A stretch of DNA of 64,000 bases from Owenia fusiformis (taxonomy: Eukaryota). The notes under the pieces were generated by a model that saw only the letters and a list, made by a program, of their open reading frames with translations, was not told where the DNA came from and searched no databases. The translations under genes were made by a program, and so were the position numbers. This document shows, piece by piece, positions 24,639-61,200 of the stretch. Every line of letters starts with the position of its first letter. Within the stretch, counting starts at the first letter, position 1. The stretch is from positions 6,138,001 through 6,202,000 of the forward strand of contig CAIIXF020000001.1 in the NCBI GenBank assembly GCA_903813345.2, in the 5' to 3' direction.

Positions 24639-24883
24639 ACTCGTCTGAAGCATTGATTACTAGTTGACATTTGACTTTATTACGTTATAAATGATTGACG
24701 ATGTAATTCATCATGGTAGTTCAAAAAGTATTAACACTATTCTACGTCTTGATTATAAAAGTGAATATTTCGATCTTCGTAAGCGTAACTGTTGCAGAGA
24801 TGCTGTTTTTAGGAGTTGTATCAAGGGTCTTAAAAGCATATTCATATTTCAATGATTGAAACTAATCGTGATATCCATGGAGA

Positions 24884-27829: not shown

Positions 27830-28247
27830 TCACATAAATTACATAAAAACACAGTCTTAAAAGTATGTTAATGGAAATATATACAAGGAATGAAGATGAA
27901 AAGTACATACAAAATTGTGATGATGACTTATCACCAGTACATGGTAACAGTTATTAACAAAATTCACAGTGTCTAGAACTAATATTTTCTACACATCTGC
28001 ACATCTGCATGTTGAATGGGTTAATGTTGCACTTTGTTATTCATTCGAATCGAAAGCAATTCACATTGTATTTTAACAGTACTTATAGAGATTTGTACCG
28101 ACATGTAGGATTCACATCCGTTTTATTGTCATATACACAGATCGCCAATTGAAATAAAGTAAATTGCATGTTTTTTTTGGGATTGATGAGTAATTATATA
28201 GATACAGTGATGTACATGTACTGTAGTCCGTATCTTGTGATTTGTCG

Positions 28248-31200
28248 TTAACCCCAAGGATCCTCGTCGTCGGAATCCTCCTGAAAAACAATAAACAAAT
28301 AACAAAATTTATGTTTATAAAATTACCCATTGTTATATAATGATTAACTTAGATACATTATGCATGATGGAACCTAATATGATGTGAGTTTTCAATGAAA
28401 ACATTAAAACATGAGCTCGAATTCCCAATTGGACATTAGGACAATGTGCGTTTGATAAGGATCTCTTAGACACTTTGGTATTGCATCCACTATGTAAACT
28501 AACAAAGATGATAACAATTAATTATGTATCCTCACCCAAGCCTTTTTCCTTCTAAAGGTAGCCCTTTCTTCCACCTTCTTTACTGGTTCAGGCTAAAACG
28601 AAAAAATCAAGTGTATATGTGAGCACTAGAAAAAGGATTGTTTCAATGTTGAGCTTTAATAGACTAGATGCGAGTAGAAATAATCTTGATTTACGTCATC
28701 AAAAATTCAAACTTCAGTCAAACTGATGTCATATTTGGAATCTACATGTAGAATTACATCTAGAAGTGTGGTTTTGAAGAGTTTATCAACTTTGAAAATT
28801 TAATTGTCTTGGAAAATGGGACTTCTAGGTCGGGGGATTCCCCATAGAGCCCATGTTGTAAAATCACAAAAAGTGAAATATCTTTTCTAGTGTTGGGCAG
28901 ATAATATTTTCTTTTACTGGGCATATTTTAATTTGTATAACTATCAGATACAAAAGAGTAATATGAAAAGTGAACCACTAAAACTGATGAATATTCAAGT
29001 TTAAGGGGATTTTGTAATACCATGCCATGTTATTTCCCCCGACTCAGCCTCCTGGTGGCGAAACTGGTAACTACCTACTCGCATCTGAGTAATTAAACAT
29101 GTTTAACACGTTGCAACAAGTAGTTTACTGACCGTTTTCTCTTTAGGTGGTGGCGTCGGTTCTTTCGGTGGAGGTGTTGGCTCTTTAGGTGGTGGCGTCG
29201 GTTCTTTCGATGGAGGTGTTGGCTCTTTAGGTGGTGGAGTTGGCTCCTTTACTGTCTCTGGTTCTTTCGTTTCCTCGTCGTCACTATCCTCCTATGTATA
29301 TACGATGTTATCAAAATATGATGCCAAGACAACAGTACATAGTTGATGTGGTAAAATATAACAGCCCATACGAAATGATCAATTCTGACAATATGAAAAC
29401 ATTTTTCATATTTTGATGAACATGGATAGTATATATACAGGGTGGTCCAAAACAAAAACGCTCCAAAAATGAAATAATTTCTTTTATGCATATATAATCA
29501 GCTTCATTTTTCATGTACAGAAACTACAATCTATGGTTGACAATGTGAGATCAAATTCATAACACAACATTCAATATCCTTCTTGTTGTGGTCAATTAAA
29601 AAATATGCCGACTTTTGAAAGAAAAGAAAATGTAAAATTTTCGTGTCAACCAAGTGGTCAACATCGTTTGTTTAAACCCATCACATTCTTTTGGCTTCTT
29701 GTTAAGCTGCATTTTGTCAGTATAGAGGTTGAGATCTTTAATGAGGAAGTGTCCCAGCAACCTTTAAGCCATCTTTAGGCATGGCTGCACCTTCTGAGTG
29801 ATATTTTGGACACATTCTAAGATCATCAATGATATCACGATCACAAATAATCAATTTTGTGTAACAGACTTGATATCATATTATCATCCATATATTTTAG
29901 TTTATGCACATAACAAATTGGGTTGATAGGATGGGTATTTAAGAATATTACACTTTGAAAGGGTTTTGTCTTTTAGGGTCACCGTGTAGATGGTTATAGC
30001 TATAATATCAAGAGCGAAATTGGCTCGGAAGGAATATTCCTTTAACGCAATATCAAATAGAAACTGAATAAACCATATGCAAAACATTACATGGATATCC
30101 TATTTATATTGTCCAATGATCATCGCAATGGTCTCTTTGTGACATTATATATATTTTAATCAGACATATTTTCATGAATTAGTTATCACTGAAATAGAAG
30201 TAGAAGCAAAATAAGACAATGCATAAGCATGAAAAGATGTCACCTCCTTGTAAGTTGTTGCAAATGGTTAAAATGTTAAGTCCACTTATTTGTTGCCATG
30301 GTAACATTTCACGTCAATGAGATTGCATTTGTCAGTTACAGAATACAGATATATGAGAAGTGCTTTAAGAAAAATAATCTGTTTTCATGGTAATATATAT
30401 TCATTGCCATGGTATCTGAACCGGTCAAAAACGTCAAAAATATGTTAAAAGTCGTAACATATCTAAATGTGTTGACAATAAAAGATTCCATGTGAACACT
30501 ACTTCTTAAAAATAAATTATTGCAAATGGTTACATAATGTTACAGGTCTACTGATATGTTGACATGGTAACGTGCATTGGCAGAGATGTATCATGTATTG
30601 GAATACATGAATCGTTTATAAATGTTCACAGTAAAACCTTGAGGTCAGTCTAAACAGTACTTGTTACTCTACTTCTTAAATCATTGCAAATGGTTACTAA
30701 ATGTTACACGTTCACTTCTTTGTAACAATTGTAATATATATTGGACAGAAATGTGTTGGAACTTATAACATGTTTATATGCGTTCACAGTAGACAATTTG
30801 AAGTCAATCTAAATTGTGCTTGTTTAGTTATTGGAAGAATTTGTTACAGACGAACGCTAACCATCGTCCACAAAAAGTTGCAAACTATAACAATATGACA
30901 CCACTTCTGATGATGACATAAAAATGAGAAGAAGCCTTCCCGAAATCTACACGTTAGTATTTCTTATATTTCTTGTGATAAGTAACATAAAGTTTTAGCA
31001 GCGAAATGCAAATTATATATATAACCTGTAACTTATAATTGATTATACGAGGGCCATCCAACATGTTCTGTTTGTTAGTACCTTATGCTTTGGTCACATT
31101 TGCTCCGATTTTCACTACGGAGCCCGGCCGATTGAGTATTTTGTCCAAAACTGAATAGAATTTTGAGCAAAATACTCAATCGGCCGGGCGCCGGCCGATG

Positions 31201-34200
31201 GATCGGAGCAAGTGTGACCAAGGCATTTAAGGGTAACCCATATCACTGTGTAATGACCTCTGCCTGTTTATGTGCCACATGTATAATATAGATCGTCACG
31301 GATTTATCAAAGGGAGATTTTTCTATTGACAAATCAATTTCACATTTTATTGGAGGTGAAGTTTCAGAATCTTCTTTTTGTGTTAAATGGGAAAAATTGA
31401 TCTGTAGATTTATTAGCACAACACATTAGCACAACACATGGCATTATGAAATGTACTGTAAATGCAACAAGGTCGTTTGGATTTATATTGCACGAGGATT
31501 TATATTGGCTGATGCTTATGCACCCTTTGGATAATCCACTCTCTCAAAGTTTATTGTAAACTTTCTGACGACTTGTTTTATCTTCAAGACGACTTCCATA
31601 AACTGGAATTTACAGAACTCCCCTAATTTCTTCAAAATAGACTGATCCATTACACTAACCTTGAGCTGCCATATTCTTTTTATACGGGAAGCTTATCGTA
31701 ACCCTAAGTCTACACATTTTCCTACATATCATGAAATACGGTAGAGGTCAAAACACTAACCATTACATCATTGTAAATTAAGTTACCGTTTCGTTTAATT
31801 GACAATTCGTCCAACGTTTTGAAACTTTCAGTAATTATTCTCTTTTTGAATAGTGTGGCGATCTGTATTAACATTTTTTTTAAATTCCAGACACCAAAGG
31901 CTAAAACATATTTTGAACGGCCATCGTATTGAAAAGTTAAAGCTCTATTATTAGATATTTGGATAATATTAGTAGATACACATTCTTTGGGACGTTTGTG
32001 ATTAGATATATCTAAAGCAATTAAATTACAACTAATTAAATAATTTGTATTTTGATGTTACTTTGTTATATTTATCTTACCCATGGTTTCTTCTTTCTAA
32101 ACGTGACCTAAAACGTTATAGTTTGAACAAATCATCATTAGATATTATATTAAGTAAATCAGAGAGTCGAATCAATTATTTTCAATAATACATTTCCTAT
32201 TTCCTTTCTAAGAAGTGCTGATATTATTAGGTACCTTTTCTTCTTCCTTCTTTTCTTCTTTGGGCTCTTCTTTTACATCTTCCTCCTCATCAGAATCGTC
32301 CTATATGAGAAAAGGATTAATATAATGATTTCAGCTATAGAGCTGGTTAATATGATATCTGACCGAGATTACATGTAAATCACTTTTATTCCAAAGAGTG
32401 ACACACGAGGATAACTCCAACTAGCGCATACCATTTTTCTCTATACCATTCCCCTTTTCACATTTTTAGACCTATCATAAATAAATATTTGTTTGAAGTT
32501 TTAAGGTACAACAAACATACTACATTTCCATAAATATATGGGGAACCTACTCGACAGTTTACTGTTATGGTAAGTACAAGGGTTGTTCAAAAGGTTTTAC
32601 ACAAATATATATTATATCTCACCCAGGGATTCTTCTTTTTAAATGCAACCTTTTCTGGTTCCTTATCCTACAAAAAATGACAAAGGTCAGAACTAGAAAT
32701 TCTATTGGCGTTTCAATCCTGTGATATCAGACAACATGAATGCAATTTCATTTTATGGAATTAATAATACCACATGTCTTCACATACTTCTTTGGCATCG
32801 TCCTTAGTTTCTTCATCCCGTGGTTCCTTGTCTTTAGTTTCATCTTCCTCATCGGAATCATCCTGCATTGTATTGACAAGCTATGATTATAATACATGGT
32901 GCTGATTAGGGTATTCACAAAAAGCTAGATATATTTCATCTTCTGGCCAATCGATATGCAAAATAGTTAACCTATCATTAAAGAAGCACGGGTGATTAAA
33001 TTCACTCGATTTCTGTATACTGATTTCTGTGTTGTCCGTTACCTAAATGCATTGGTTCAAAGACTGTGAACAAAATCAATGGTCAGTGCATTAAATCTCA
33101 AAGCATTAGGTCTATATCCTTGAACATAGTTGGTTAGTTAGTTACAAACAGGAAAATCATATTGAAGTTAAACAAATTTGAGATTTTTCTGTGCAATCTA
33201 TTATCTTCTCGTTTAGAAAAAATACCAAAACGGGTTACCCATGGTTGCTTCCTCTTTTTGAATATAGTCTTTTCGGGTTCCTAAATCAAAATAAAGAACA
33301 CATGCAGGTGAGTACAATCCCAAACACTCTCATGCTTATGGCTATATGCTGAATTCCAGAGAAGAATTATGTGGAAATAATACCCAAGTCATATTGCACA
33401 TAGAGTGCATTTTATTGTAAATACTCTTTTTGCTGCATATTTGGCAACTATGCAACAGTATGGGTATTTACACTACCCTTCATAGGTTTGGCAACCTTAC
33501 CTCCCCATTGAACTACGTGTTAAAGCCTCGTTACGTTTGAATTTTTATTTACTTGCGATGAAATAACTTATAATGTTGATGGAAACCTAACTTGACTTTA
33601 TTTCCAATACCTCCAAATTTTCCCATTTTTCCTCGATTACAATAAGTCGAAAATTGATGATGGGAAATTATGGGTTCGGGCAAATGGGAAATCAGGATAT
33701 CTATTCAGTAAAAGATTCAGCAAAAAATATTTTTATATAGAACTATCTAACTTTTTTTAACTTTGTTGATCCTGAAGAAAGGTATCATTTTTTTTGTTAA
33801 ATAAATTTAGCAAATTCAATTGCCTACGTATAACTTGTTTTTTTTGCAAGGACTCAGAGTGATGGATATTCTGTCATATGACTTGCGGTAAACCTACCAT
33901 TTCCCATTGGTTAACATGGGAATGTCGTTTTTCAAAAATTTATCAAAATCATAATGTTCGACCTATTGTAATTGAGAAAATTTGGAGGTATTGACAATAA
34001 AGTCAAATTACGTTTCCATCAATAGTATAAGTACTCTCATTGCAGGTTAAGTAAATAAAAATTCAAAGGTAAAGAGGCTTTAACATGTAGTTCAATGGGG
34101 GAGCTAAGGTTGCCAAACTTATGGAGGGGAGTGCATATTTTTACTCTGTATTGCTGGTGGTATCGGGAGAAACAGCACACATATTTTTTTAATAAACCAT

Positions 34201-37200
34201 GGCACACACACATCACATTTTAGAAATTGTACTCAGAAACAGAATTCCATGACTCATATATATATATATATGCGTTGTCTAAAACATAATATGCGTTATA
34301 TAAAATCCATACATCGACATAGTGTGCAACGTAATCTTAGAAATAATTTCCCATATACTGAATCTCTTTTGCCCCCACCCATAGATGTGAGCTTTCAAGA
34401 TTGATAATATTGGTAGAGATGCAGTTCATATGATCTAACACTCGATAAAGGATTGGTATCGATATGGTGAGGAACACACGTTTCTATTAAACCAGTCATT
34501 AAAAAAATGTTTACACATCGTCAATTTAGTGGTCATGTTTTGAATGGTAACAATATAATTTGAAATATTTTTTCTCAATATTGTTTTAGAAAACACATCG
34601 GTCACTTCTTTTGTTCCTGGTATCATATGCTGCAACTGCACTAAAAACAAAAAATGTTAACAAAAACAGTTATATAAAATATATACAAATAATTTTCGCA
34701 TTAAATTGTCGTCAATCAGTCAACATTAAACAAAGGACCGTGTTTTGTAACAGAATGTTTTCAATAATTGGTTTAAGAGAAAAATATTGCTGAATACAAT
34801 TCACCATACCGATACCAATCCTTTGTCATTAACCTACACATGACTACAAATACTTCAATAGACGACCGTGTGATTTGTTCATTTACACATTAAATTGAGG
34901 AGAAACACAAAGCAGGTGATAAAACAAAGACAAGTCATACATTTTGCATATATTTTAGATTATGCAAAATGATGGCTCAGAACTACAAAACAATACACCA
35001 ACGTTAGATTCCTATATACTCGCTACTTTGATTTTTACGAAGATAAAAATCACATCATTCATGCCAAAAAAAAGAATAAAAAAGAGATGCTAAAACGTTT
35101 TTAAAGACTATCGACTATATACCAGGTATATGTTAAGATGAAACGAATGGTGGACATGTAACAATTGCAATTGACAAGAGAAACTAGTGAATATTAGCAG
35201 GAATATGATAAAGGACATTTATTTTAAAATGGAGTGAGGACAGAAACTACGCCAGTATAATGGGTAAATTCGTATAAGTGTTGTAATATAACAGGGGCGG
35301 ATCTGGGAACCAACAAGGGGGGGAGGCCCAAATTTCAGGTCAGAGAAAAAATCGTCCGCGAAATTTTGGGCCCTTAAAACCCAAAAGTGGGCCCAAATTT
35401 TGAAATTTTGAGGCCCATTTTCTTCAAAATTTGGCCTGAAATTAAAAAATAAGGCCTGAAAGGCCCAGTAATGACCAAAGAGGCCCACTTTTTGGGGCCT
35501 GAAGGCCTTTTTTGGCCCCAAATTTTTTTAGGGCCCAATTGTTTTTTTCTGGGCCCACCCAAGGGGGGGGGGGGGGGCCGGGCCCCCAGGCCCCCCCTAA
35601 TCCGCCAGTGTATAAACTGACTAGAGAAGTTCGTAGTTTCCATGAAGTAACCTACTAAAGGAGATACTGCTTCGTATTGGTTGTCTACATACCTTTTTAG
35701 ATTCCCCCTGCTGCTCTCCCTTTACCTCTTCTTTTGGTAGGTCATCTTTGGTCTCTTCATCATCCGAATCGTCCTGCAATAAATGAACACACCGTTAAAT
35801 ATCTGAATATACGATGAACACTGGATTATGATTCTGCAAACGGTTCAGCTCGTTAGACGCTATATAAATAAGTAATTTCTTATCAATTTTAATAAATCAG
35901 CGTCTCGATGAATATACTTGTTTTTCTTCTTTTATATAAATAAGTATATATACTGTTTACATAGAATATAGCTCACTTTAGTTTGTAACTCAAATGTTGA
36001 CATCCAAATACAATGACCAATATATTTTTAAAGTACGGATCTACAATAAAACAATTACCCAGGGTTCTTTCTTCTTTTTGAACATGGTTTTTTCTGGTTC
36101 CTACAGTAAAATTTACGTCAATAAGGCAGAGGTAAAGCAGCTAAACAAACTGACATTATATGCCTATACCACCAAATGTGATTTCTAGTAAATTGTACAT
36201 TTTATAGTAATCAATTTGGTGAAATAGATATAATATACATGGTAGGAAGGTTGGCATAATGTAAATGTATAAACATTTTAAGAATATAATTTACATGTAT
36301 ACCCAAAGCAAGTTACAAATCATGATCAATTGATTGAATTCACACACGATTTTAATGTAAGGCAATTAATTATACTTCTAAGCTATTTTATTGAAAATGC
36401 AAATGGTTAAACGTTATGATACCGATTGATTTCAAAAATCTTTGTTCATAGCAATCTATTTGCCTTTTTTGGTTCCTCTTTCGGCTCATCCTTAATTTTT
36501 TCACTCGGTTCCTCATTTGACTCCTCTGCTTTTGATTCATCCTCTTTCTCCACATCTTCTTTTGCATCTTCTTCATCAGAATCTTCCTGTTTTTGCACCA
36601 ATGTAATACATTTTACAAAGTGATTATGATTACTCTCGAGTGCAGTATATATAACCAAAGCATGGAATAATGTTTATAAAATATCAAACATATTAGACTA
36701 GAATTTGCATGTAGAAAAATCAGAAATCATCTAGCGAGCATCCAAAACGGTGATTACTGATTACTGAGTTAATGTATATCTGAATGGGTGTTGAGATATA
36801 CCAAGTAAATAGATGTCAAAATACGATTTTTGGTCAAATAAAATATTGGAAGTATTAAAGATTTGAAAATTAATTCCATGTGTTTTCCATTTTATCTTTT
36901 GCTTATTAATTTAAATGGGTTTATAAGAGTTCATCAACTCTTTTGGTGAGCTCTGTGATATGTGGGGGTCAAACGTTGTTTATCTGGAATAAGGCCAAGA
37001 TGTTTGTAATGATCGACTCTATGGAAAACATTATTTCCAATTTTAAAGTTATGAATTTAGAATTCACATTTTCCTGGGTTTGAGAATATTATGTTTTTAC
37101 TTTTAGAAGCCTTGGAATTCATTGTCCATGTCTCAGACCATTGTAAAATTTTGTTATTTTTTGTTTAAATCAGAATATAGTTGGTATAGAGATACATCAT

Positions 37201-40200
37201 CCGCATACATATTGCATTTGCTTGACAACGTTTCAAGGGATCAGTTATATATATCGGGAAAAGTAGAGGTCCAAGAGCAGAGCCTTGTGGAACACCAGCA
37301 TTTATATAAACGTCCTCACTTAAGACAGACTCTTGACCAGCATTGATAAATTTTGTTCGTCTCATAGAAAGATATGACTCTAAAAGCGATAGAATGCTTG
37401 GGTCAATTCCATAAGTAGTAGTAATGAATGAGGTTAGGTGTCAAACGCAGCAAAAATATCTAAATACATTTCCCTTTGGGGAAAGTATCATTTAATTTAT
37501 TATGAAGTAAATAATGTTTAATAATTGAGACTGGGTACTATGCCCTGGGTAAAAAAATTAAGAGTTCACCAAATAAGTCTGTGATCGACTTAAAAAAACA
37601 GGTCGGGATAAAAATGGTGATGATGATGCAGATATTCAGGGCCAGTATTGTTGGTAAACCAAAATATTCCCCAAAGTGATTTAGCAATACCAGAAATAGT
37701 GATCTGTATACATCCATATATAAACGAAAGTACTCATAAACGATCAGACGAAAGTGATATATGTAAATCATTGTCAATATGATTTCTTCACCTAATCCCC
37801 ACTTACTATTTTTAATATTAACATGGTGGTCCACAATGCATGTTATCATAAAACAACTAGTTAAAAGATGACGAATATTTAAATCAATTATTAAATAAGT
37901 GTCTTTCGACAACATTGACCTTGGTATATCTCGTAAATCGTTTATCATTATAACAGGAGTATTTCGACCACTGCTTCCTCTGCTCGTTAGATGATACAAT
38001 GTTTTTGCCTTTATGGTTTTCCTTTTAGTAGAATAATCTTTATACAATATTGAGGTACAATAAAAATTTTACCCAAGTTTCTTTCTTCTTTTTAAACATA
38101 ACTCTTTCTGGTTCCTAAAGCAAAATGAATAACATTAAGGCAGGAGTAAGCGAGTAAGCGATCAAACGACATATGCCTATATTACCAAATGTTATGCCTG
38201 TACTTATAGATGCCTTGTACTTATAGATGTATAAACTTTTTAGGAATATAATTACACTTCTAAGCTATTTTATTGAAAATGGAAATGGCTAAGCATTGTG
38301 CTACTGATTGATTATCTATTTGCCTTTTTTGGTTCCTCTTTCGGCTCATCATTTATTTTTTCATTTGGTTCTTCCTTGGGTGTCTCTGCTGCTGGTTCAT
38401 TTTCTAAGTTCACATCTTCTTCATCAGAATCGTCCTGTTTTTTGCACCAAAGTATATGATAAATTCACTTTACAATTTACAACATTTTCCTCTACATATA
38501 CATACATCGTGTTTGAATAAGTTTTACAAAGTGATTATGAAAGAGTTTTTATTTGTATTATGAAAGCCGAAGTTCATATCAAACGTTAGCAAATTTACGA
38601 GGGTAGGATCGTATCATAAGCCATGAAACTATTCTATTATTTTATAGAAATATCACTAATTTACTGTTGTGATTTCTCTCCATGAATTATGTGGTAGAAA
38701 TAATTTGATAATAGCTAGAAAGGCTTTACCCATGGCTGCTTCTTCTTTTTGAATGTAGTTTTCTCAGGTTCCTAAAGGAAGGGCAGAACAAAAACAGGTA
38801 TTAAACAAACGGGTGTGCAAGGATGGAAGGTAGACTACCTCAAAAGTCTTACTGAAATACGATAATATTCATACTGAATCGTAGTTTATAGTCTATTATA
38901 CATGGTTCATAAATTAAGTAGATTAAACAGAGGAATTTTGAATACTTTTTTAACTTCCTCTTCAACTTCTATTTTCTCTTCTTCTTTAGTTTCCTCTTTT
39001 GCCTCTTCTTTCGTTTCTTCTTTTACTTCTTCTTCCTCATCGTCAGATTCATCCTATAATGGCGTGTTGATATACAGTGCATTAGTTCCTGCATATGTAA
39101 GTTTCGAGTATCTCTCCTAGTTCATATGCCTAACACTAATATCAAGTGTATATAATACATATATTCGTTGGTGTAGTTTTAGTTGGCCAAAACTGGTGCT
39201 AACGCATTGAATTATTAATGCATGTTTATGGAGTTTATATATTGTTATGGATATGTATTGAAGACATGTGGTTGAGTAGAATTAAGATTGATATGAATAT
39301 TATAAGACTAGTTATGAAGCAAACATTATAGGAAGGATAATAGAAATATCACTAATTTAGTGTTGTGATTTCCCTCCAAGGATTATGTGGTAGAACTAAT
39401 TTGATGATAGCTAGAAAGGCTTTACCCATGGCTGCTTCTTCTTTTTGAATGTAGTTTTCTCAGGTTCCTAAAGGAAAGGCAGAACAAAAACAGGTATTAA
39501 ACAAACGGGTGTGCAAGGATGGAAGGTAGACTACCTCAAAAGTCTTACTGAAATGCGATAATATTCATACTGAATCGTAGTTTATAGTCTATTATACATG
39601 GTCCATAAATGAAATAGATTAAACAGACGAATTTTGAATACTTTTTTAACTTCCTCTTCAACTTCTATTTTCTCGTCCTCTTTAGTTTCCTCTTTTGCCT
39701 CTTCTTTCGTTTCTTCTTTTACTTCTTCTTCCTCATCGTCAGATTCATCCTATAATGGCGTGTGGTTATACAGTGCATTAGTTACTGCATATGTAACAGT
39801 TTCGAGTATCTCTCCTAGTTCATATACCTAACACTAATATCAATTGTATATAATGCATATATTCGTTGGTGTAGTTTTAGTTGGCCAAAACTGGTGCTAA
39901 AGCATTGAATTAATACATGTTTATGGAGTTTATATATTTTTATGGATATGTATTGAAGATTGAGTAGAATGAAGATGGATATGAATATTATTGGACTAGT
40001 TATGAAGCAAACATTATAGGAAGGATTATGACTAACTGTAGTTTAAATATGTAGAACATTAAAATATGACAGCACATTTACTTATCACGAATGACTAGTG
40101 TGTTAATAATGATCTTACCCATGGCTGCTTTTTCTTCTTAAATGTTGTCTTTTCTGGTTCCTGAATACGAAGTAAGGTATAATCATGCTTTGTAAGTTGG

Positions 40201-49200: not shown

Positions 49201-52200
49201 ACCTTCACAACATGAATTAGACATGCATGAACATTATTGAAACGGCGAGAACATTGTGACATTAAGTATGAAAACAAGTACCACAAACAGATATTACATT
49301 ACACATCGAAATTGATAAAGACAAGTCACGAACAATGCAGTGAATAGATCGTTTACATACTTTTTTTTCCTCTGGTTCTTCTTTCTTTTCTTCTTCGTCA
49401 CCAGAATCCTCCTAGATTATACACACATACAATTAACTAGTTGGGTAAAATCTTATTTGTATAAAGTATTAATTTGAAATACAAATGTATGCCTTTGTTA
49501 ACTTGATAAAATTACCGGCAAAGCAGAACATAAAAATATTATACAGGAATTTACACTATACAAAAATACCGTAGTATATTCAGTCTGTTGGTATTTAATA
49601 TTAGAATTTTTCGTTTCCTTTGATATTGTTCCGTGAAGATGCGTTTGACCTAATAGATATATATCGAAGTAAGTTAAGTGGTCTGCTTTAATAATATTAC
49701 AACAAACTCACCCAGTCTTGTTTCTTCTTTTTGAATACTGCTACTTCTGGTTCCTTGAAAAGAAAGACTTAGTGTAACATTTAACTTTTACACCATATCA
49801 GACCTTTACAACATAATTTCTAATTACCAGGCACCTGAAATTGAGTTTATTAAAACAAGTGTTACTACTTTATCATGTATCTATTAGATGAAATGAAAAG
49901 TGGCCAAAGAAACATAAACAGGGAGAGCCAATAAAATTGGAACATTTTGTAGAGTGACAGGGCAAGACCTCTACATGTTATTCTAGAATGCGTATTATAA
50001 CATTGCTATATCAAAACCCTCACCTTAACTTCTTCCTTTTTCTCATCTGCCTGAAATCACAAATGTATATTGGTTATTATGGTCAATACAAATTTCATCA
50101 AAGATCAGTAATATCGTTGTATAATAAGCTTCAAGACCTCCCTCTGGTTTACGATATCTGTTTATCCCAAGTAAGCGGATTTTTGTCCATAAAGCAACTA
50201 TACCTATACAAAACAAAAAGTAGAATGTCTCTAACACCTTGAATCAAGAAGATTAGCATAATGATATGTCGCAATGTCGGATAGGATAATGATATTAGGG
50301 GAAATCTTGAAATTATGGATAAATTGATAGGAAAAAATATATGACATACCTCTTCTTTTTTGGCACTGCTCCCCTGGAGATGTATTATGAAAGGAAGAGT
50401 AGATTATAGACAAAGAAAGGCTTAAAATGAATATGATATGCGCGACACACATATACTGAAGCTTGTAAATAGAAGTATGTGTGCCAAGAGATAAGAAAAG
50501 GGATAAGTAAAAGTCATGGTATTATGAAAAAGGAACGATTTGCATAGAAAATATGTAATAATATTAATAATTTCTGTTTTTTTAATGTTTTTCATGTATG
50601 GTAGACCATCAGGCCATCAGGGTGTCTTCCAAATGATGTATACTAATATATAAGATTCCGTACTTAGGATTTTACTTCATAATTATAACATAACATTAAA
50701 ATTGAATCCAATCATCCAACTTCCAAACTCACCCATGGGTCATCATCTTCGTCGCTCTCCTCCTGTGTAATAAGAAGAAGAGCTCGATGAGAATATGGAA
50801 AAGGTATTGCTTCAGTTGCTACTGACCAGGTTTGAGAGAAAATAGTTATGAATATTTGAAACGATGTAAAATCGTATTCGAGTTGTGAACTATTGGACAG
50901 GTAAAGTACAAGAGTAGATGAAAAGCAAGTAAGTAAGAGAAGATGAAAAGTAAGTAAGAGCGAATATAGAGGGATATATAGAAGAATATAATGTACAAGC
51001 AAGTGCCTTACCCAGTCTTTTTTCCTTCTGAACAAAGGCTTTGGTGGTTCTTTCTAAAAGTCAATAATATCATACTGTATATGAAGACCATATTAATTCA
51101 CACAACTAACTTTACGTAGGATGCAGTTAGAAACTCATGAATAGTATTACATTGCGAATACACATTGAAATACGTTCATACCTTTTCTTCCTCAACTTCT
51201 TTCTTTTCTTCCTTAACTTCGTCTTCATCCTACCAATGAACAATTTGACGTGAAACAGACAACTGCAAATTAGCACCTTATTGACATAACCCTTCATAAA
51301 TCTAAATATCTTGTTAAGTGTCATATGATTAAGAACTGGTATACTTCGAGTTTTATCATAGTACTCTGCATTATAATTATAATGACTATCTTTCCAGGCA
51401 AACAACTTGTACATAACACACGCCATGAAGTAAAAATGAACACATCATCAATACACCATACCAATACAGTACCAGATAACATATGGAATCACTATACAGC
51501 AACTAACAATATAACACGTTGCAGCACTGGACATGGACATGCACTATTATTCCATTAATACATTGCATTACTATGCAGACAATGATAAAAGCTAATTTTT
51601 TAATCAATCCAAAAGTTTAGATTTTTGTCCTAAAACTACAAATGTATCCAAAAACTATAAAATGGTATTAATCAGTAAAAACATCGTAAACTCATTGTTA
51701 TACTTCAATCATACAAAACAACCATTATAACGTCAAGCTAACATGCTAACCTTCGTTTCACTTGCCGGTATATCCTCGTCATCACTGTCTTCCTAAATAA
51801 TCAGCAGTGGAAATCTTGTTTTAGAAATGAATTTGACACACCGTGCTCAAAATTTAGCCTGTTTTGTGCTTTTTAACGCATGTATTTTGCTATTTCTTTT
51901 AATTCTAATGAGTCTTATAATACTTTCATTTTGAGCTGATATTTTGATGATATTGCAACTTTAATGTAACTATTGTGATTATGACCTACAGGGATTTACC
52001 ATTTACGATCTACAGGGATTTACTATATACTGAAAATCCCAATTAGAGCATTTCTATAATATTTTTCATATTAGTAAATCTTACCCAATCGGCTTTCTTC
52101 TTCTTGAAGACAACCTTCTCAGGTTCTGTCTGTAAAATTGTGCAATAAAATGATGAATCCACTTACCCTTCCAATCTATAAAATGCACTAATAGTCATGA

Positions 52201-55200: not shown

Positions 55201-58200
55201 CAATTTTTTGTTAAATAAAGTTAGCAAATTCAATTACCTGCCTGACTCGTATTTTTTGCAAGGACTCGAATGGATGGATATTCTGTCATATGACTTGCGG
55301 CAAACCTACCATTTCCCATTGGTTAACATGGAAATGTCGATTTTCAAAAATTCATCAAATTCATCATCAATTTTCGACCTACTGTAATTGATGAAAAAAA
55401 TTGAGAAAATTTGGAGGTATTGGAATTAAAGTCAAATTACGTTTCCATCAATAGTATAAGTATTTTCATCGCAGGTTAAGTAAATAAAAATTCAAAGGTA
55501 AAGAGGCTTTAACACGTAGTTCAATGGGGAAAAAAGGTTGCCAAACTTATGGAGGGGAGTGTACTTTAACCTACTTACATGGCTAGCATAACCCATCAAC
55601 CTAGTTTCTGGGAAATTAGGTCAAATTTGTATCTAGGTCAAAGGTCAAGAACTAGCTCAAATTTAGGTCAAATCAACATTCTGTCAATTATCTTCGTTGT
55701 TGTTTGTCGTTACTCCTTCATCTTTATTTCATAAGCTATATGACTCTTTAGTCCAGCCTATACTAAACTATGGTTCATCTATATTTGGCCTCAACCAACA
55801 TCAATGCCTGAACAATGTTCAAAATAAAGCTGGCAAGTTCTTTCTAGGTGTAAACAAACGCACTAGTAATGAGGCTGTTAGAGGAGATCTCGGATGGGAC
55901 ACTCCACATTTAAAACAAAAGGTGGAATGTGCTAGGTTGTTCATTAAACTGAAGTCCATGAATCAGAATAGGCTGAATTTTAAAATACATGAATGGTCCA
56001 TTAAACGGAAAAGCAGTTGGGACTTTAAAGTTAATTCAATGTTAAATACATGTAATATAAATTTCACTGGTCATACCAAGGACATTTTAAAACAGTTTAC
56101 TAACTCTCTTCGTAATTCTGATAAATTTATCCATAACATATGGGATGATAGAAATAATGAGATTAATGGCAATAAATTGAGGCAATATAGACTGTACAAA
56201 TATGGTGTTTGCAAGTAAGGGTATTTGGCCCTACCAAAGCATCACCGTAGGTCACTTGCGAGATTCAGAACTGGTACTTTGGCCTTAGCAATTGAAGCAG
56301 GGCGCTACACAGGTATACCATTACACGAAAGGAAATGCTTATTGTGTGACATGGATTGTGTAGAAGATGAAAAGCATTTCTTATTAGAATGTAGCCATTA
56401 TGATGATCTAAGATGTGATTTTTATGAAAATGTTAAACAGAAATTGCCTTATTTAGATGTAACATCAGTCAATTCTACACTTCTTTTTGTCTCCATAATG
56501 AATTGTACTTCACTCCACAATTTGTTTCCCTTGACATCAGTGTATAAAATTTGCACCAGACACAAAGATCACTTTTTTATAAAGAAAAATTGTAAGAAAT
56601 TCAGCCATCTTGAATCTCTTCTTGAGTTAAGCCCATTTGTCCCCTAGCAACAACATATAAAATTTGAATCAAATCTGTCAACTAGCATTTGACAATGGCG
56701 GTCATTTTGAATTGAGAAGCCATATGGAAAATTCTTGCTCGAGCAGAGGTCCTTTATCCAAAAGGCATAAGCCTATTAACTCAGTCAACGACAATTGAGT
56801 TATCGACTAGACAGTTAGCACAAATGTATTTTTGTTCTGACCCATTTATATCAATGGCAACCACCTGTCATTTGTTACAGTCACCGATCGCCAAATACCA
56901 CCCACAAACGTTTGGAGACTGCAACAACATGTTACCACTTGTGGTGGTGACATAAAAAATGTCAAACCTTTTTCGAATGAGAATGTATAACGGTTCAGTA
57001 CGTTTAAGACATAACATTCGAGGGGGATGAGTGCATGTCACAGGCTGTAATGATTTGATGTGAATATTGGAGAGAAGGAGCAAAGTTTATAAATGTAATA
57101 ATTGCGAGAGAAAAGTATATCTAATGAATTGTGATCATCATATTCCTTACCTCTTTGTCTTCTTTCTTATCCTCGCTGGATCCCTACAAAATATAAATCA
57201 GACGGCTCTCGATAAGGAATTTTACATCATTTGCAAAGGACCGGGTATACAATGGCAAATGATTTTGGACAGTCATATATTTCACCATGAGTACTTTCCG
57301 GCCATAACACAGTGGTTTTTATTAAAACAATATGTTTTCTTTCAAGTGAAGTCCACGTGATAATAAAAGAGAGAGTACTCATGGTGAAAGATATGACCGA
57401 CGTCTAAAATCACTTGCCATATACCTGAACCACTAAATTAATATTGCTATTTTCCTAAATTGTAAAATGATCTTTAATCTTTCAAGTTTTATATTACTGC
57501 ATTAGGAGTCTTTCTATGGATTGATAATATATCGCATATGTGCTCTGTTTGTATTGTATTACATTGACCACAACAATGTACAATGTATTATGAATAATTT
57601 GTAAATAACATGGAGAACAATCTAAATAGAATGAACTGAGAATACTAGATGAAGAGAATTATGAGAAGAAGACGTCTGTCACATAATATAGATAATTAAT
57701 CAACAGATACAAGAATATCAGTATAATATAATCAGTGATACATTAAGACAGAAATTATATCATAAAGACTAATTAAAGAAGCGTTACATGAAATGAAGGC
57801 CAAAAGAAAACATAACAGAAGACAATATATGACACTGTATAAACTAATCACAGCTAATATAATCGTAATATCATAAAGTATACTCTAGTTGTGTTAGACA
57901 ACGTTAGACATGTAAACAAACATGTCCCATTAAGTTACATTATCATGTTAAGGCATGCCAATAATATGTTTGTCACGTGACGTTCACACGTTGACTTACC
58001 CATGGATCTTCGTCGTCTGAATCTTCCTACAAAGGTCAAACTTAAAATTAAATTATCTCCTACTGGAAAATAAGAATTGAGTTAATGATCAATTATATTT
58101 CACTTTGAGATGTGATTTGACAGGATTTGTATAATCTATCGGAGCATGCGATAAGCACAAAAATGTAAATACAAAGCAGTAATCACTTCATTTTATATGA

Positions 58201-61200
58201 ATTCATGATTAAGTAAGGAAAACAAAACTAGAGGTTTTACCCATTCAGCTTTCTTCTTTTTGAATACTGCCTTTTCAGGTTCCTTTGGCTGAAACAAAAT
58301 CAGTTGCGAGAAGATAGAAAATGGATCACTGGTGTGATAAATACTGATGGCAATGATATATGTTAGAATGATGCCCGTTTCAGTATTATCAAATCATATA
58401 ATATACAATAAATGGTTATGTATGATTACAGTCATCATATCCTTATATTACCTTTTCTTCCTCTTTTTCTTCTTCATCAGATTCCTCCTGTAAACGAAAT
58501 ACACAACGAGGTTAAATCGACTCGGAGACTGGGGGTTGTTTTGTTTTATTTCATGTGCATCTTATTTCTGATATATTTTCCGAATTGAAATATAATTGAA
58601 TTGTTTCGTCTATTATACGTATTTAAATACATGTATTATTTCTTAGTTTCTAGCTTACCCAATCAGCTTTCTTCTTTTTAAAAACTGCCTTTTCAGGTTC
58701 CTTTGGCTGAAATAAAGTCAACGTTTCTTTTGAAATTATGTAATTTGCATATGAAATTTTCTCAGGAAGATTTTAAGATATATATGTTTTAAGAGTTTAC
58801 AATCAATTGTATATATTTATAAAACATATAATTCACTCTCTTCAATAGATTTTCAAATTAATACCTTTTCTTCCTTCTGTTCTTCATCAGAATCCTCCTG
58901 CAAGGCCAAAATTGATAATAAATTAGTTTGTGTTTTTTAAACAATTTATCAACAGATTTTATTTTCATTAATAAACATAAGTACGTGATGGATCCGGTTA
59001 CCAGTTGTATTATTATGTGTCATTTAGCCAATGTTCTTGTATGACATTTGTGTGTAGGCTTTGTGTTAAATTTTTTCATACACATAACATCTAGGGTAAA
59101 TGTGCTTGTTAACGAATTGCATGTCATGATAGGAGAATATTGCATTTGACCAATTTGCTTTGAACTAATATTCAAAATCAAATCCAAATGAGAGCAAATT
59201 ACATGGAACTTATAATTGATAAAATGCATTAGTTATATAAGCGATCTGCCCGACCAGTTGACTATAAGAAAAAAATAGTACATACCCATTCCTTTTTACG
59301 GCGAAATGTAGGCTTGGGTGGTTCCTGGGGAAGATGATAGAAAGACAGGGTAATGTAATGATTGCAGGAGATTTGAATTCTTTTTCTTTCACAAGTTCAT
59401 TCTTTTGGCAGATAAAAGTATGAAATGTGAAAGTGAATCCAAATACATGGTGAACAAACACTACAAGTACTGTAACACTGGCGGATCCCATGCCACCCCC
59501 CCCCCCCCCCTCTACAAATTCTTAAGGCCCCAAAATATTTTGTAGAGCCTCAAAAATGGGCCTTTTTGGCATAACTTGGCCTTTTTCAAAAATGGACCTT
59601 AAATTTTCAAAATTAATCTATTTTTCAAGATTTGATGTGTCCCCCCTCCTTCCTAGTTTCTGGACTCGCCGGTGTGTAAGGTATAATTACTATTGATGAT
59701 TAGCTAAGCATACATGGTCAGGGAATGAGAAGCCAGCAAAGAATTTTTTCTAAGGATATTTTCAAAAGAACTTAATGGCAACTAAGATATTCGTATTTTG
59801 TCAAGGTTTTGAATCCTGGTAGGATATATACCTTCTTTTCCTCCACTTCCTCCTTCTTCTCATCCTTCACTTCTTCTTTTCCCTGCGTATAAATATTATA
59901 TAATTTCAAGTGATGGTAATAAACAAGGTTCAGTATATGCAGAGATCCATATGGATTCCTCTGTACAGGATCGGCGGGGACATGATTTTAGTTGTGGCTA
60001 TATTTTCCATGTTAAATTATTTCAAACGTTTTTACATTTCTGTTTCAGCCTTGGCTTTGTTTTATAATGGGGTTAGATGTTCAAATGACTGTTTATTATT
60101 TCGCTTTGGATTATTCATTTCATATTCTTATACATAGGTATATATAAAACGCAACCTTTTAAAAATTGGTTTGACTTTTTAAATTTTTGATCCAAAATCA
60201 TAATTTGCATACCAAAATAAAAGTTTAATCTACGGTATAAAATTGCTAGCCCTGCCCTATGAATTGTACACTTTTACTTGAATAAAATATGTTACCAGAG
60301 TCTCACCTTAACATGTGTTGTGCCATGAACAAATAAACATAATATGCATAGTGCAGCTGAACGGATAAGGCCTGATGAGCACCCAGCTAATTAATAGTCC
60401 TGGTGCAAACCCCAGTGATTATAGGATATGGAAAGGTCTCCAAGAGATGGTATAAAGGCACACAATCTCAAAGATTGCTGAAGCTGGCAATCTTAATTGC
60501 TAAAGCTGGCAATTAAGACAAGTTGGATGAAACTAGTCAAGATTTCACAGATACTGCCATATTAGCGTGGCGCGACTAAGGCTATCATCAAAGAAGTTGG
60601 AGGGCCAATTTAACTCCCTTTTGAGGACGATTACAATCCAAGTTGAAGGACATGTTATATTATTTTATTACCAAGGGCCTATAAACACTTTATATTGTTT
60701 TTTTAAAGTAGCGTTTTTCTGGCCCACCCTGTAGTTAATGTGTTTGAAGTATTCTAGTATTGCCCTTTACCTCCTCTGTTTCCTTCTTTGCCTCCTCTTC
60801 ATCTACCTCTTCCTTTTCTTCCTGCAAAAGTAGGTCATTTCCATTTTGCAGTATCTTCATTTAATAAGAGCATTGGCCGTGGAAGTTGAATGCCATTCTA
60901 TTAGCATCATTTTTGCAAAGAACAGTGAACATTAAGTTCAAACTGGCCAACTCCAAAATGACCTAAATCTTTTAAGTGTATGGTCTAGAACCTGGCAATT
61001 GAAATTTAAAGCATCTAGCTAAAAGTGTTCATTTAGTTTTTCGCTCAAACCGACAAAAAAATATTCAAATGTCTCGGCTTTACTTTGATGGCGAAATGAT
61101 CCCCCAAAAGCAATCACACAAGCACCTGGGTTTCATCTTAGATGAGAATTTGACTTTTAATGACCATATAAACTATCTGTCTAATAAAGTTCAAAAACTG

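Follow-up and report, generated by a model that had tools for sequence, protein, structure and literature searches.

Intrinsically disordered proteins encoded by short symmetric exons form a described class, in which tandem duplication and repetition of linear motifs accompany the disorder (PMC3632108, in the part of the text available). In the disordered N-terminal tail of eIF2-beta, lysine runs with conserved hydrophobic and acidic flanks (K-boxes) are repeated docking sites for the W2 HEAT domains of eIF5, eIF2B-epsilon and 5MP, and CK2 strengthens binding at these sites (PMC12439599, in extract). In titin, the interplay of PPAK and poly-E modules alters flexibility (PMC9100103, in extract). 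The W-acidic motifs of SKIP and calsyntenin-1 follow the consensus L/M-D/E-W-D/E and are bound by a positively charged TPR groove of kinesin light chain (bioRxiv 10.1101/2020.06.17.157255 and PMC6214655, both as excerpted).

The array described here lies on the minus strand of a 64,000-nucleotide stretch of Owenia fusiformis DNA (the window). Positions 28248-59324 hold the 3' part of a transcribed gene of that strand; the gene probably reaches upstream past 63189 and probably starts beyond position 64000. The product of the gene next to it has 100% identity to a protein attributed to the annelid Owenia fusiformis. A six-frame scan for F[KR]3-4.{0,2}W directly before GT found 19 minus-strand matches, all within 28536-59324, whereas 100 first-order Markov simulations of the window produced such exon ends at a mean of 0.02 per window and a maximum of 1. 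All 19 basic mini-exons have a pyrimidine tract and AG acceptor, and all end in F-[KR]4-x1-2-W with TGG followed by gt[ag]. The acidic partner is in each case the next open frame starting with [DE][DE]S behind an AG, 171-2789 nt downstream of the basic exon, and across the 19 units it begins [DE][DE]-S-[D17/G1/E1]-[DE]-[E18/D1]. F, W and S are not replaced in any unit. The distance from F to W is 7 in 14 units and 6 in five, the residue before W is P in 11 of the 19 and acidic in six, and positions -3 to -6 relative to W are K or R throughout. The motif Ser stands with acidic neighbours in the context S-x-x-[DE], the CK2 consensus, in every unit. The initial annotation had proposed a basic exon joined to an acidic one in 19 of 19 units, the latter always opening with [DE][DE]S[DEG][DE], together with invariant F, W and S and a CK2-type serine; the scan, the splice signals and the RNA joints described below uphold the junction, and the sequence agrees with the remainder in all 19. 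Its end coordinates were exact, since basic exon 1 starts at 59324 and the stop codon ends at 28248. The core of its motif stands, but its extent was drawn too short, as the conserved unit runs for about 21 residues from an EPEK prefix to the acidic tail: E-P-E-K-[VAT]-[TVM]-F-[KR]4-x1-2-W, then, across the junction, [DE][DE]-S-D-[DE]-E-[DE].

Units 1-6 (49.7-59.3 kb), like the spacer and upstream exons, were called from sequence alone. Four E/K-rich mini-exons are predicted upstream (63154-63189, 62513-62551, 60771-60821 and 59832-59882). Basic exon 1 (EPPKPTFRRKKEW then gt, 59286..59324) precedes acidic exon 1 (EDSDEEQKEEK, 58865..58897); basic exon 2 (PKEPEKAVFKKKKADW, 58659..58706) precedes acidic exon 2 (EESDEEEKEEEK, 58452..58487); and basic exon 3 (PKEPEKAVFKKKKAEW, 58241..58288) precedes acidic exon 3 (EDSDDEDPW then gtaagt, 58000..58026), the first exon to end in DPW. 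Four more E/K-rich mini-exons are predicted between units 3 and 4 (57151-57183, 54293-54316, 53956-53985 and 52393-52410), of which that at 53956-53985, EKEAREKAGW then gt, is a degenerate W-ending exon. Unit 4 consists of TEPEKVVFKKKKADW (52085..52129) and EDSDDEDIPASETK (51751..51792), and unit 5 of KEPPKPLFRRKKDW (51012..51053) and the second DPW-ending exon, EESDEDDDPW then gtgagt (50733..50762). A predicted spacer exon, ADEKKEEVK (50024..50050), separates it from basic exon 6 (EPEVAVFKKKKQDW, 49712..49753) and acidic exon 6 (EDSGDEEEKKEEPEEKK, 49361..49411).

The 47 modelled exons, all of phase 0, encode 806 residues, of which 30% are E and 23% K, with a net charge of -124; P, E, V and K together make up 66%, or 69% if A is included. 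F and W are the only aromatics, and Y, C and H are absent. All 19 F and all 23 W occupy motif or exon-end positions, 19 of the 23 W lying within the motif, and 19 of the 28 Ser are the motif Ser. After the first seven conserved residues of the acidic exon comes a spacer of about 3 to 46 residues, and the four exonic differences between RNA and reference among those listed all fall in spacers and all change a residue. The encoded protein is a PEVK-like polyampholyte, very acidic and almost certainly disordered, and its C-terminus is itself a motif unit (EDSDDEDPWG and stop). The N-terminal part, beyond the window, may hold a folded domain, a membrane anchor or a signal peptide that would alter this reading.

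The 19-fold split of the motif goes back to a single ancestral intron, carried along each time a two-exon cassette duplicated in tandem. The '19 of 19' of the initial annotation is thus a single inherited intron position and not 19 separate events of assembly. The introns have diverged. Ungapped identity of the intron flanks has a median of 0.36 and reaches at least 0.5 in only 3 of 171 unit pairs, and the one long intragenic duplicate is 38644-39338 versus 39340-40026 (94% identity). Where two units share a residue, they write it with different codons in 43.1% of 2054 comparisons, and random codon choice would give 47.6%, so that synonymous codons are about 90% randomised. The motif Ser uses all six codons of both families (TCT 9, TCC 4, TCG 2, TCA 1, AGT 2, AGC 1), and the motif F is TTT in 7 units and TTC in 12. 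By contrast, 3177 comparisons between units over the core show the same residue in 70%, the Nei-Gojobori medians are 0.14 for pN and 0.75 for pS, and of the 77 unsaturated pairs 76 have a dN/dS below 1. All these values compare paralogous units within one gene of a single species. As F, W and S are invariant despite this randomisation, selection has acted at the protein level, and the earlier suggestion of purifying selection, with the dN/dS check that went with it, is borne out by pN far below pS and by the switches of Ser codon family. Nor can the motif W be due to the needs of splicing alone, because the acidic exons that end in AAG fit the donor better and suit the composition, and W has changed to K or Q in none of the 19 units. 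That there is no selected motif, the units of a low-complexity gene being alike because they duplicated recently or underwent gene conversion, is disfavoured and scarcely credible: the recent tandem duplicate and three unit pairs with similar intron flanks would fit it, but conversion would have homogenised introns and synonymous sites, and it would not produce a Ser that moves between TCN and AGY codons.

The reading we prefer, at a probability of roughly 0.5, is of a PEVK-like disordered polyampholyte that would carry a multivalent, CK2-type, splice-tunable docking array, in which the 19-fold motif is probably a repeated docking site. The gene has grown by tandem duplication of a phase-0 cassette comprising a basic exon of 9-19 codons (E-P-E-K-phi-phi-F-[KR]4-x1-2-W) and an acidic exon ([DE][DE]-S-D-[DE]-E-[DE], then an E/K/P spacer of variable length). 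Since each duplication took along the ancestral intron that separates W from the acidic run, splicing rebuilds the same composite motif of about 21 residues 19 times. Each unit is then a candidate short linear docking site, with two aromatic anchors flanking a +4/+5 lysine run, a -6/-7 acidic run next to it, and in that run an invariant Ser, a putative CK2-type phosphosite that would tune the charge. An array of such sites could give high avidity for a partner, the E/K/P spacers would keep the chain extended and soluble, and in-frame skipping of basic half-exons may tune the number of sites. Our best guess at the partner, by analogy with the W2 HEAT domains that bind the eIF2-beta K-boxes, would be a domain with acidic/aromatic and basic surfaces. 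The likeness to eIF2-beta, a repeated lysine run with hydrophobic and acidic flanks in which each repeat is an extended docking site (as each unit here may be) and CK2 modulates the electrostatics, does not imply homology. eIF2-beta has three copies and a folded C-terminal part, whereas this array has 19 and runs to the C-terminus; the CK2 sites described in the available text lie on the acidic/aromatic box of the partner (PMC12439599), whereas here the candidate Ser is within the unit. With the symmetric-exon class, as partly seen in PMC3632108, the gene shares short phase 0-0 exons (47 of 47), tandem duplication, predicted disorder, a repeated motif and alternative splicing, but its motif matches no family tested and becomes whole only when two exons, each skippable by itself, are spliced together. 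The docking array is favoured by a sticker-like layout, in which all F and most W and Ser lie in the motif. It is weakened by the F-to-W distance of 6 or 7, which a rigid pair of pockets would tolerate poorly, and by the net charge of -124, which also fits a bulk physical role.

Such a role is possible but rather unlikely. The chain would be a self-interacting sticker-and-spacer polyampholyte that works as an entropic spring, or as a scaffold for condensates, much like titin PEVK, and needs no external partner: basic-aromatic blocks would pair with acidic ones in the same chain or in another, splicing would determine how long the chain is and how its charges balance, and either phosphorylation of Ser or Ca2+ would tune stiffness or coacervation. 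The P, E, V and K content, with or without A, exceeds the 0.54 cut-off for calling titin PEVK exons (PMC6469411, in extract), small exons that are in frame and alternatively spliced carry positive modules in turn with negative ones, as in titin, the chain is almost certainly disordered, and acidic exon 18 has PPxK-like repeats. The 41-residue acidic exon 14 was unmatched among database proteins of 73-2000 residues, the Owenia fusiformis proteome included, which fits a giant protein and equally an unannotated gene. On the other hand, a mechanism of bulk charge or cation-pi contacts should tolerate exchanges among F, Y and W and shifts of position, of which there are none in 19 old units, and a single invariant Ser at W+3 resembles a specific site. 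The array also lacks the 28-residue PPAK module, and its invariant F, W and S have no PEVK counterpart; a Pfam search with two exons (including acidic exon 18, cut-off E<=0.01) returned no family, PPAK included, no Ig or Fn3 context is visible in the modelled part of the gene, and a motif unit forms the C-terminus. Less likely again is a CK2 phosphoprotein of the nucleus or nucleolus, akin to Nopp140 and treacle, or an acidic protein that chaperones basic ones, in which the acidic runs would be the working surface and the lysine runs, which we take to resemble monopartite localisation signals, would direct the protein to the nucleus. Acidic clusters alternating with basic stretches, and CK2-type sites repeated exon by exon, are found in treacle (TCOF1, 11 central repeats) and Nopp140 (PMC9133508, in extract). 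However, in treacle one exon holds a whole repeat, whereas here it is split over two; the acidic clusters of these proteins are Ser-rich, against one Ser per unit; a motif unit takes the place of their conserved C-terminal domain; and the invariant F and W, aromatic anchors found in the array only, would be left unexplained.

Two further readings we regard as very improbable. An array of kinesin-light-chain W-acidic motifs, recruiting many kinesin-1 motors, would account for the W followed by [DE][DE]S in all 19 units, the C-terminal half of SKIP TNLEWDDSAI (PMC6214655, as excerpted), in a disordered acidic context; multiple copies per protein also occur among W-acidic proteins, and serial motifs are reported to enhance transport (bioRxiv 10.1101/2020.06.17.157255, in extract). 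The initial annotation had called this match partial, but it is weaker than that, as the defining features fail and only the WDDS/WEDS half is like SKIP LEWDDS. L or M at -2 occurs in none of the 19 units, -1 is mostly Pro and acidic only in the six noted above, and the array adds an EPEK prefix and a conserved Phe 6-7 residues upstream of W; the TPR surface is positive and its binding has an electrostatic component (PMC6214655, as excerpted), whereas four K/R stand directly upstream of W in every unit. Equally hard to credit is a reading that places the function in the three DPW-ending exons (58000-58026, 50733-50762 and the C-terminal DPWG), taken as DP[FW] motifs for the AP-2 alpha-appendage or as acidic-tryptophan motifs like that of WASP, and that reduces the 19-fold motif to a spacer. 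DP[FW] is a defined low-affinity alpha-appendage ligand, usually in multiple copies (PMC5694535, in extract), and in all three exons W follows an acidic run, once at the C-terminus; but there are only three copies, conservation is far stronger in the 19-fold motif, and the 806-residue model has no WH2 or connector element.

RNA comparison covered 28100-48099, or 13 of the 19 units, with 15 of 106 joints listed, seven of them basic-to-acidic, three acidic-to-basic and two skipping. It used read sets X12, X13 and X14 and the X1 contigs, which do not serve as a DNA control. The stranded reads have their first mate on the plus strand only over exon bins. The seven basic-to-acidic joints have ends CT..AC on the forward strand, that is GT..AG on the minus strand, and join seven of the 13 pairs, and X1 loose ends spell the partner exon for three more; joints for the pairs 28536/28280, 39426/39053 and 41824/41568 are absent among the 15 of 106 listed. 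As all exons are of phase 0, either half-exon can be dropped in frame, as had also been claimed, and basic half-exons are indeed skipped at two units. Basic exon 10 (40738..40779) is skipped by 17 reads (6, 11, 0), from the donor of acidic exon 9 at 41521 to the acceptor of acidic exon 10 at 40552, and included by 37 (25, 9, 3); basic exon 16 (33239..33280) is skipped by five (2, 2, 1), from the donor of acidic exon 15 at 35693 to the acceptor of acidic exon 16 at 32862, and included by 37 (27, 9, 1).

In unit 7, basic exon 46652..46693 and acidic exon EDSEDEEEKTEEPEKKK (46404..46454) are linked by joint 46652/46454, with 33 X12 and 14 X13 reads having the first mate on plus, and 1 X12 and 4 X14 reads on minus. 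Unit 8 (45305..45346; DDSDDEEKTEEPEKK, 44964..45008) is linked at 45305/45008 by X1, two contigs having a loose end at 45009 that is the end of basic exon 8 with one differing letter. The pairing in unit 9 (41824..41865; EDSDEEEKKEESERKK, 41521..41568) was called from sequence, and the donor of its acidic exon is the one joined to acidic exon 10 in the skipping form. Acidic exon 10 (DDSDEEGETVEEKVKEKVEDEVKK, 40481..40552) is joined to its basic exon (40738/40552) and to basic exon 11 (40481/40160; 21, 17 and 6 reads). Basic exon 11 (40119..40160) has an X1 loose end at 40118 spelling DESDDE, for pair 40119/39749, and acidic exon 11 (36 residues, 39642..39749) is joined to basic exon 12 (39426..39467) by 39642/39467 (24, 20 and 5 reads). 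Acidic exon 12 (36 residues, 38946..39053) is a recent duplicate of acidic exon 11. Basic exons 13 (38730..38771), 14 (EPERVMFKKKKETW, 38073..38114) and 15 (36059..36100) are joined to acidic exons 13 (37 residues, GC donor aag/gcaaat, 38324..38434), 14 (GC donor, 36464..36586) and 15 (27 residues, 35693..35773) by 38730/38434 (22, 25 and 1 reads), 38073/36586 (31, 38 and 1) and 36059/35773 (32, 28 and 6), and an X1 loose end at 38116 joins the 3' end of acidic exon 13 to basic exon 14. Basic exon 16 is joined by 33239/32862 to acidic exon 16 (25 residues, 32788..32862). Joint 32787/32664, with two other letters between (31, 24 and 0 reads), is read as the junction of 32788 with 32667 plus one changed letter, and leads to basic exon 17 (DKEPEKVAFKKKNPW, 32623..32667), which X1 loose ends at 32622 and 32301 connect to acidic exon 17 (22 residues, 32235..32300; pair 32623/32300). 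Basic exon 18, VTFRKKKPW (32081..32107), is the shortest and is joined by 32081/29291 (two X14 reads and two X1 contigs) to acidic exon 18 (53 residues, five KEPTPPP-type repeats, 29133..29291). Basic exon 19 (PEPVKKVEERATFRRKKAW, 28536..28592) and the terminal coding exon (28248..28280), both called from sequence, complete the array, and an AATAAA lies about 120 nt downstream of the latter, near 28125.

Nineteen matches to F-[KR]n-x-W that lie directly before GT were found in a six-frame scan of the window, all on the minus strand between 28536 and 59324. A pyrimidine tract and AG precede each of these basic exons, which invariably end in TGG|gt[ag], and 3' of every one, across an intron of 171-2789 nt, stands an acidic exon that starts ag|[DE][DE]-S-[DGE]-[DE]. 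In 100 first-order Markov simulations of the window, which is AT-rich eukaryotic DNA (GC 31-41%), the basic-exon pattern arose 0.02 times on average and at most once. The scan and the splice signals confirm the basic-to-acidic pattern that the initial annotation had reported for 19 of 19 pairs, and its coordinates proved exact, 59324 being the first base of basic exon 1 and 28248 the last base of the stop codon. The RNA data described below add to this confirmation.

The motif described at the outset is real, but the conserved unit is longer than had been stated, at ~21 residues including an EPEK prefix. Upstream of the Phe the prefix positions are occupied by E in 17, P in 17, E in 16 and K/R in 17 of the 19 units, followed by one of V, A, T or P, then one of T, V, M, L, I or A, and then by F in all 19. 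K/R fills the four positions after F in 19, 19, 19 and 18 units, and one or two variable residues separate the run from W, with Pro immediately before W in 11 units; the distance from F to W is 7 in 14 units and 6 in the other 5. The Trp, at the splice junction, is invariant (19/19) and is followed by E/D (19), D/E (19), S (19), D (17), D/E (19), E/D (19) and E/D (17). Protein kinase CK2 favours Ser/Thr in acidic surroundings with Asp/Glu at +3. The Ser at W+3 is followed by D/G/E, D/E and E/D in 19/19 units, so the S-x-x-[DE] consensus proposed initially is matched in every unit, as a putative site read from sequence. At 53956-53985 on the minus strand, a predicted exon EKEAREKAGW|gt is followed by a predicted exon EEEEQK; the pair looks like a degenerate 20th unit that has kept the exon-final W and the acidic start and lost F and S.

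Chaining the 19 basic and 19 acidic exons with nine E/K-rich mini-exons, chosen by splice signal and composition, gives a model of 47 exons, all of phase 0-0, that encodes 806 residues. The modelled protein (E 29.5%, K 22.8%, D 10.7%, P 9.2%) has a net charge of -124, the basic exons summing to +54 and the acidic exons to -150. It is devoid of Y, C and H, and L (3), I (6) and M (2) are few. Every one of its 19 F is a motif F, and 19 of its 28 Ser are the motif Ser. Each of its 23 W is either exon-final or second-last before the stop: 19 belong to the motif, three stand in the DPW that closes an acidic exon and one is the last residue of the degenerate exon EKEAREKAGW. The last 29 residues are themselves a motif unit (...FRRKKAW-EDSDDEDPWG-stop), and AATAAA lies ~120 nt beyond the stop. 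GC donors (aag|gcaaat) occur at the 3' ends of two paralogous acidic exons, 13 (38324) and 14 (36464), defining GC-AG introns, one of which is backed by a contig end joining the acidic exon to the next basic exon. Because E/K-rich exons run on to at least 63189, the 5' end of the gene is probably beyond the window.

Three raw-read RNA-seq runs bearing the same species label (X12, X13 and X14; 6-12% of each run used) were mapped to 28100-48099. Thirteen of the 19 units fall in this stretch, and the other six, at 49.7-59.3 kb, lie outside it. In pure exon bins first mates fall on the plus strand only (e.g. 12.4 versus 0 at 38105-38771), and therefore, assuming the usual stranded library, the RNA is from the minus strand. 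Among the 15 joints listed, from a total of 106, seven link a basic to an acidic exon at the exact predicted bases, with GT..AG on the minus strand. Six of them are seen in the raw reads of X12, X13 and X14, respectively, as follows: 33239/32862 (27, 9 and 1 reads), 36059/35773 (32, 28 and 6), 38073/36586 (31, 38 and 1), 38730/38434 (22, 25 and 1), 40738/40552 (25, 9 and 3) and 46652/46454 (33, 14 and 0, plus 1 X12 and 4 X14 reads of opposite mate orientation). The seventh, 32081/29291, is carried by 2 X14 reads and 2 contigs of X1, a contig set from the same comparison which carries spliced joints and so does not serve as a DNA control. At a further three minus-strand units (32623/32300, 40119/39749 and 45305/45008) the partner exon can be read in loose ends of X1 contigs; 28536/28280, 39426/39053 and 41824/41568 are not among the 15 of 106 joints listed. 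Within the 13 units covered, the predicted joining is thus seen in RNA at seven and supported by contig ends at three more. RNA joints also connect acidic exons to the next basic exon on the minus strand, at 39642/39467, 40481/40160 and ~32788/32667.

Two of the same 15 listed joints link an acidic exon straight to the next acidic exon, omitting the basic exon between them. The joint from 41521 to 40552 omits exon 40738-40779 and has 6, 11 and 0 reads in X12, X13 and X14 against 25, 9 and 3 for inclusion, or 17 of 54 reads at the acceptor; that from 35693 to 32862 omits exon 33239-33280 and has 2, 2 and 1 against 27, 9 and 1 (5 of 42 reads). Skipping of an acidic exon is seen in none of the 15 joints listed out of 106. 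The suggestion that either half-site could be removed in frame is therefore borne out for the basic half, in two units, but for the acidic half by none of the listed joints. Exon depth is ~10-fold lower in X14 than in X12 and X13 (0.85 versus 12.4 and 12.3 at 38105-38771), so expression of the gene differs between samples. RNA reads fall on both strands, with many loose ends, over several dispersed repeats inside the introns. Such repeats occur at 28666-29094, 33466-34138, 35292-35455, 54686-55563 and 4067-4946, share 83-96% identity with one another or with copies at 650-1065, and are probably transposable elements expressed elsewhere. Long plus-strand ORFs at 55667-56647 and 61003-61942, also in introns of the gene, look like retroelement remnants; Pfam gave no match to the two pieces of them searched.

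The units form a tandem series in which exon phases and intron position are common to all, most simply explained by repeated duplication of a single two-exon cassette. The coincidence of motif and junction is therefore one ancestral feature inherited 19 times: the 19/19 split is real, but it does not show independently that the split is needed. The informative points are instead that every intron has been retained and that exon skipping makes use of the split. Nor is the motif W owed to the needs of the donor site, since AAG closes the acidic exons, whereas none of the motif TGG codons has changed to AAG or CAG. An exon end of AAG pairs better with U1, and AAG ends, as on the acidic exons, would suit the lysine-rich composition.

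All six Ser codons (TCT, TCC, TCG, TCA, AGT and AGC) are used at the motif Ser, and because a switch between TCN and AGY needs two nucleotide changes, it is the Ser residue itself that is held. Over the unit core residue identity is 70%, and codons for the same residue differ between units in 43.1% of 2054 comparisons, against 47.6% for random draws from the pooled codon usage. A Nei-Gojobori comparison among units, one of the checks proposed initially, gives a median pN of 0.14 and pS of 0.75; it points the same way, but it overstates pS at two-fold codons, and we rely for this reason on the codon-identity test. The intron flanks have diverged to a median ungapped identity of 0.36 over 40 nt, only 3 of 171 pairs reaching 0.5, and the sole long intragenic duplicate remaining is 38644-39338 versus 39340-40026 (94%). 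Since gene conversion would also homogenise silent sites and introns, purifying selection on the protein is the better explanation of the likeness of the units. Such selection on the motif had been claimed initially, and the invariance of F, W and S despite the divergence of codons and introns backs it. Four exonic differences between RNA and reference, a small sample from 40 listed difference rows with 304 more beyond, all lie in spacers and all replace a residue (S to P, D to E, N to K and G to E).

The best reading of the gene is that it would encode a selected, splice-tunable, multivalent array of motifs with CK2-type sites, to which we assign a probability of about 0.5. To this extent the initial interpretation is supported, but its link to kinesin light chain (KLC) is not. 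In the excerpts available, the KLC consensus is L/M-D/E-W-D/E (bioRxiv 10.1101/2020.06.17.157255) and the W-acidic motif is defined by a Trp with Asp/Glu on both sides, e.g. EWD (PMC6214655); the Leu of a bound peptide occupies a pocket, and binding, which is sensitive to salt, places the peptide against a TPR surface of positive charge (PMC6214655, bioRxiv 10.1101/2020.06.17.157255). The units agree with this only in their WDDS/WEDS half, position +1 being D/E in 19/19. At -1 they have D/E in 6, P in 11, T in 1 and A in 1, and so are not acidic on both sides; at -2 they have Q (9), K (4), A (3), E (2) or N (1) and never the L/M of the second pocket (0/19); and from -3 to -6 all 19 have K/R, where a peptide suited to the positively charged groove would be acidic or neutral. 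Because of these three departures the unit is not classed as a W-acidic motif, and an array of KLC-binding sites seems very improbable from the sequence.

The main rival to the motif array is a self-interacting spring or condensate scaffold of PEVK type, which we consider unlikely, though far less so than KLC binding. In the parts of the papers available, titin PEVK alternates positive and negative modules on small spliced exons, whose interplay changes flexibility (PMC9100103), and PEVK exons are called at a cut-off of ~0.54 for P+E+V+K(+A) (PMC6469411). The present gene also alternates oppositely charged modules on small spliced exons, and over its 806 modelled residues P+E+V+K amounts to 0.66, or 0.69 with A, above that cut-off. 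It differs from titin in that no Pfam-A profile recognised PPAK or poly-E modules in the two exons scanned. No Ig/Fn3 domain is seen at its 3' end, the 5' part probably lying beyond the window. The acidic clusters of treacle and Nopp140 are Ser-rich, whereas the 806 residues here contain 28 Ser, 19 of them single motif Ser. Because the last 29 residues are a motif unit, no family-specific treacle/Nopp140 C-terminal domain is possible. The likeness to these proteins is that their central repeats, as described in the accessible text of PMC9133508, alternate acidic and basic units with CK2 sites, as the present units do with their CK2-type sites.

Closest to the unit in local logic are, by analogy, the sites in eIF2-beta. 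Its disordered tail carries three K-box sites, lysine runs with conserved hydrophobic and acidic flanks, that serve as extended docking sites for W2 HEAT domains with an affinity raised by CK2 (PMC12439599, in part). The lysine run of the unit likewise has conserved hydrophobic and acidic flanks. The gene product ends in a motif unit and has no folded C-terminal part, unlike eIF2-beta, in which that part is reportedly a zinc-binding domain. As a tandem series of symmetric exons with a repeated linear motif, the gene also resembles a class of disordered proteins that arose from tandemly duplicated symmetric exons with such motifs, as far as the available portion of PMC3632108 describes it. In all four cases the evidence amounts to resemblance and not to homology.

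The sequence was also read against other known motifs. The WASP-family acidic region has a Trp embedded in an acidic patch beside connector and WH2 segments, with PICK1 showing that context matters (PMC4454178, in the excerpt available); the 19 motif W stand at a basic/acidic boundary, and the model has no WH2-like or connector-like hydrophobic segment. AP-2 alpha-appendage ligands carry DPF/DPW tripeptides, DP[FW], usually several (PMC5694535, as excerpted). The three DPW of the model, each ending an acidic exon, formally fit that pattern, DP precedes W in none of the 19 main units, and these endings are a side feature of the gene. A reading of K-V-x-F as the PP1-docking RVxF pattern founders on V at F-2 with K/R at F-3 in only 6/19 units, and calmodulin-type 1-8 spacing of F and W on the Pro before W in 11/19 and on the variable spacing. 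MARCKS-style basic-aromatic membrane binding is unlikely given the net charge of -124. A role in tube cement was also set aside: the protein is without Tyr and has one Ser per unit, and known worm cement proteins differ from it in Tyr and Ser content. A literature search on Owenia tube adhesives, at the level of listings, returned nothing bearing on the gene.

No relative of the gene was found in the profile, exon, PDB, Pfam and literature searches run. The profile combined the 19 basic exons with a 51-aa ORF from the window as first row, giving 41 positions of which ~14 are real motif, and is less sensitive because this padding row was added to meet a length minimum. A word-indexed search with it gave 0 matches at E<=0.01 among 7969 candidates and a search of PDB sequences 0 at E<=10; an exhaustive search of 1.84 billion representatives gave four weak matches at E<=0.001, which on reading were judged unrelated repeat proteins, one of them apparently Sel1-like. 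A 41-aa acidic exon had 0 matches among proteins of 73-2000 aa. As a control, an ORF of the neighbouring gene recovered a 642-aa 'unnamed protein product [Owenia fusiformis]' at 100% identity; the database therefore includes the proteome of the species, and the lack of a match for the acidic exon means that the gene has no annotation, is mis-annotated or is annotated with this exon left out, or that its product exceeds 2000 aa. Pfam-A gave no family at E<=0.01 for the acidic exons 29133-29291 and 36464-36586, the scan being limited to these two of the 47 modelled exons as the others are too short singly. Motif strings searched in the literature collection covered led to no paper. The gene appears to be a new variant of an architecture already known, with a motif that we could not match to anything described, and it stands as a highly expressed annelid gene that automatic protein-library searches missed.

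It is possible, although on balance doubtful, that the ~21-residue EPEK-phi-phi-F-K4-x1-2-W-[DE]2-S-D-[DE]-E-[DE] constitutes a new class of bipartite linear motif. Its basic-aromatic half and its acidic phospho-Ser half would lie on separate, singly skippable symmetric mini-exons, so that splicing would set the valency of a 19-site scaffold and CK2 its affinity. The partner would belong to a conserved machine and be recognised in a new way, candidates being a domain of HEAT/W2 or TPR type or a cytoskeletal polymer. If the array reading holds, the gene would provide an unusually clean natural multivalent array, with 19 near-identical sites, no other aromatics, one phosphosite per unit and half-sites removable in frame by splicing. 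It would allow tests of how the avidity of disordered scaffolds depends on valency, charge patterning and phosphorylation, of whether a motif completed only at an exon junction acts as a splicing-controlled switch, and of the identity of the reader domain for a lysine run with Phe on one side and Trp on the other.

The window holds further features. Downstream of the array gene, at 65-5511 on the minus strand, is a separate gene made of a run of near-identical exons, each a thrombospondin type-1 repeat, with tandem copies 87-98% identical (Pfam TSP_1 at 2436-2849, E 3e-9). On the plus strand, ORFs at 12521-13417 match CRAL/TRIO weakly (E 0.004, short of the Pfam cut-off) and are possibly exons of a lipid-transfer-domain gene. 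At 13286-14059 long open frames occur in several frames of both strands, their translations rich in W, G, P and H and repeat-like in the ORF listing. The plus-strand gene at 19853-24640 encodes an SLC3A2_N and alpha-amylase-domain protein of the heavy-chain amino-acid transporter type, and it is the first ORF of this gene that is identical to the 642-aa database protein.
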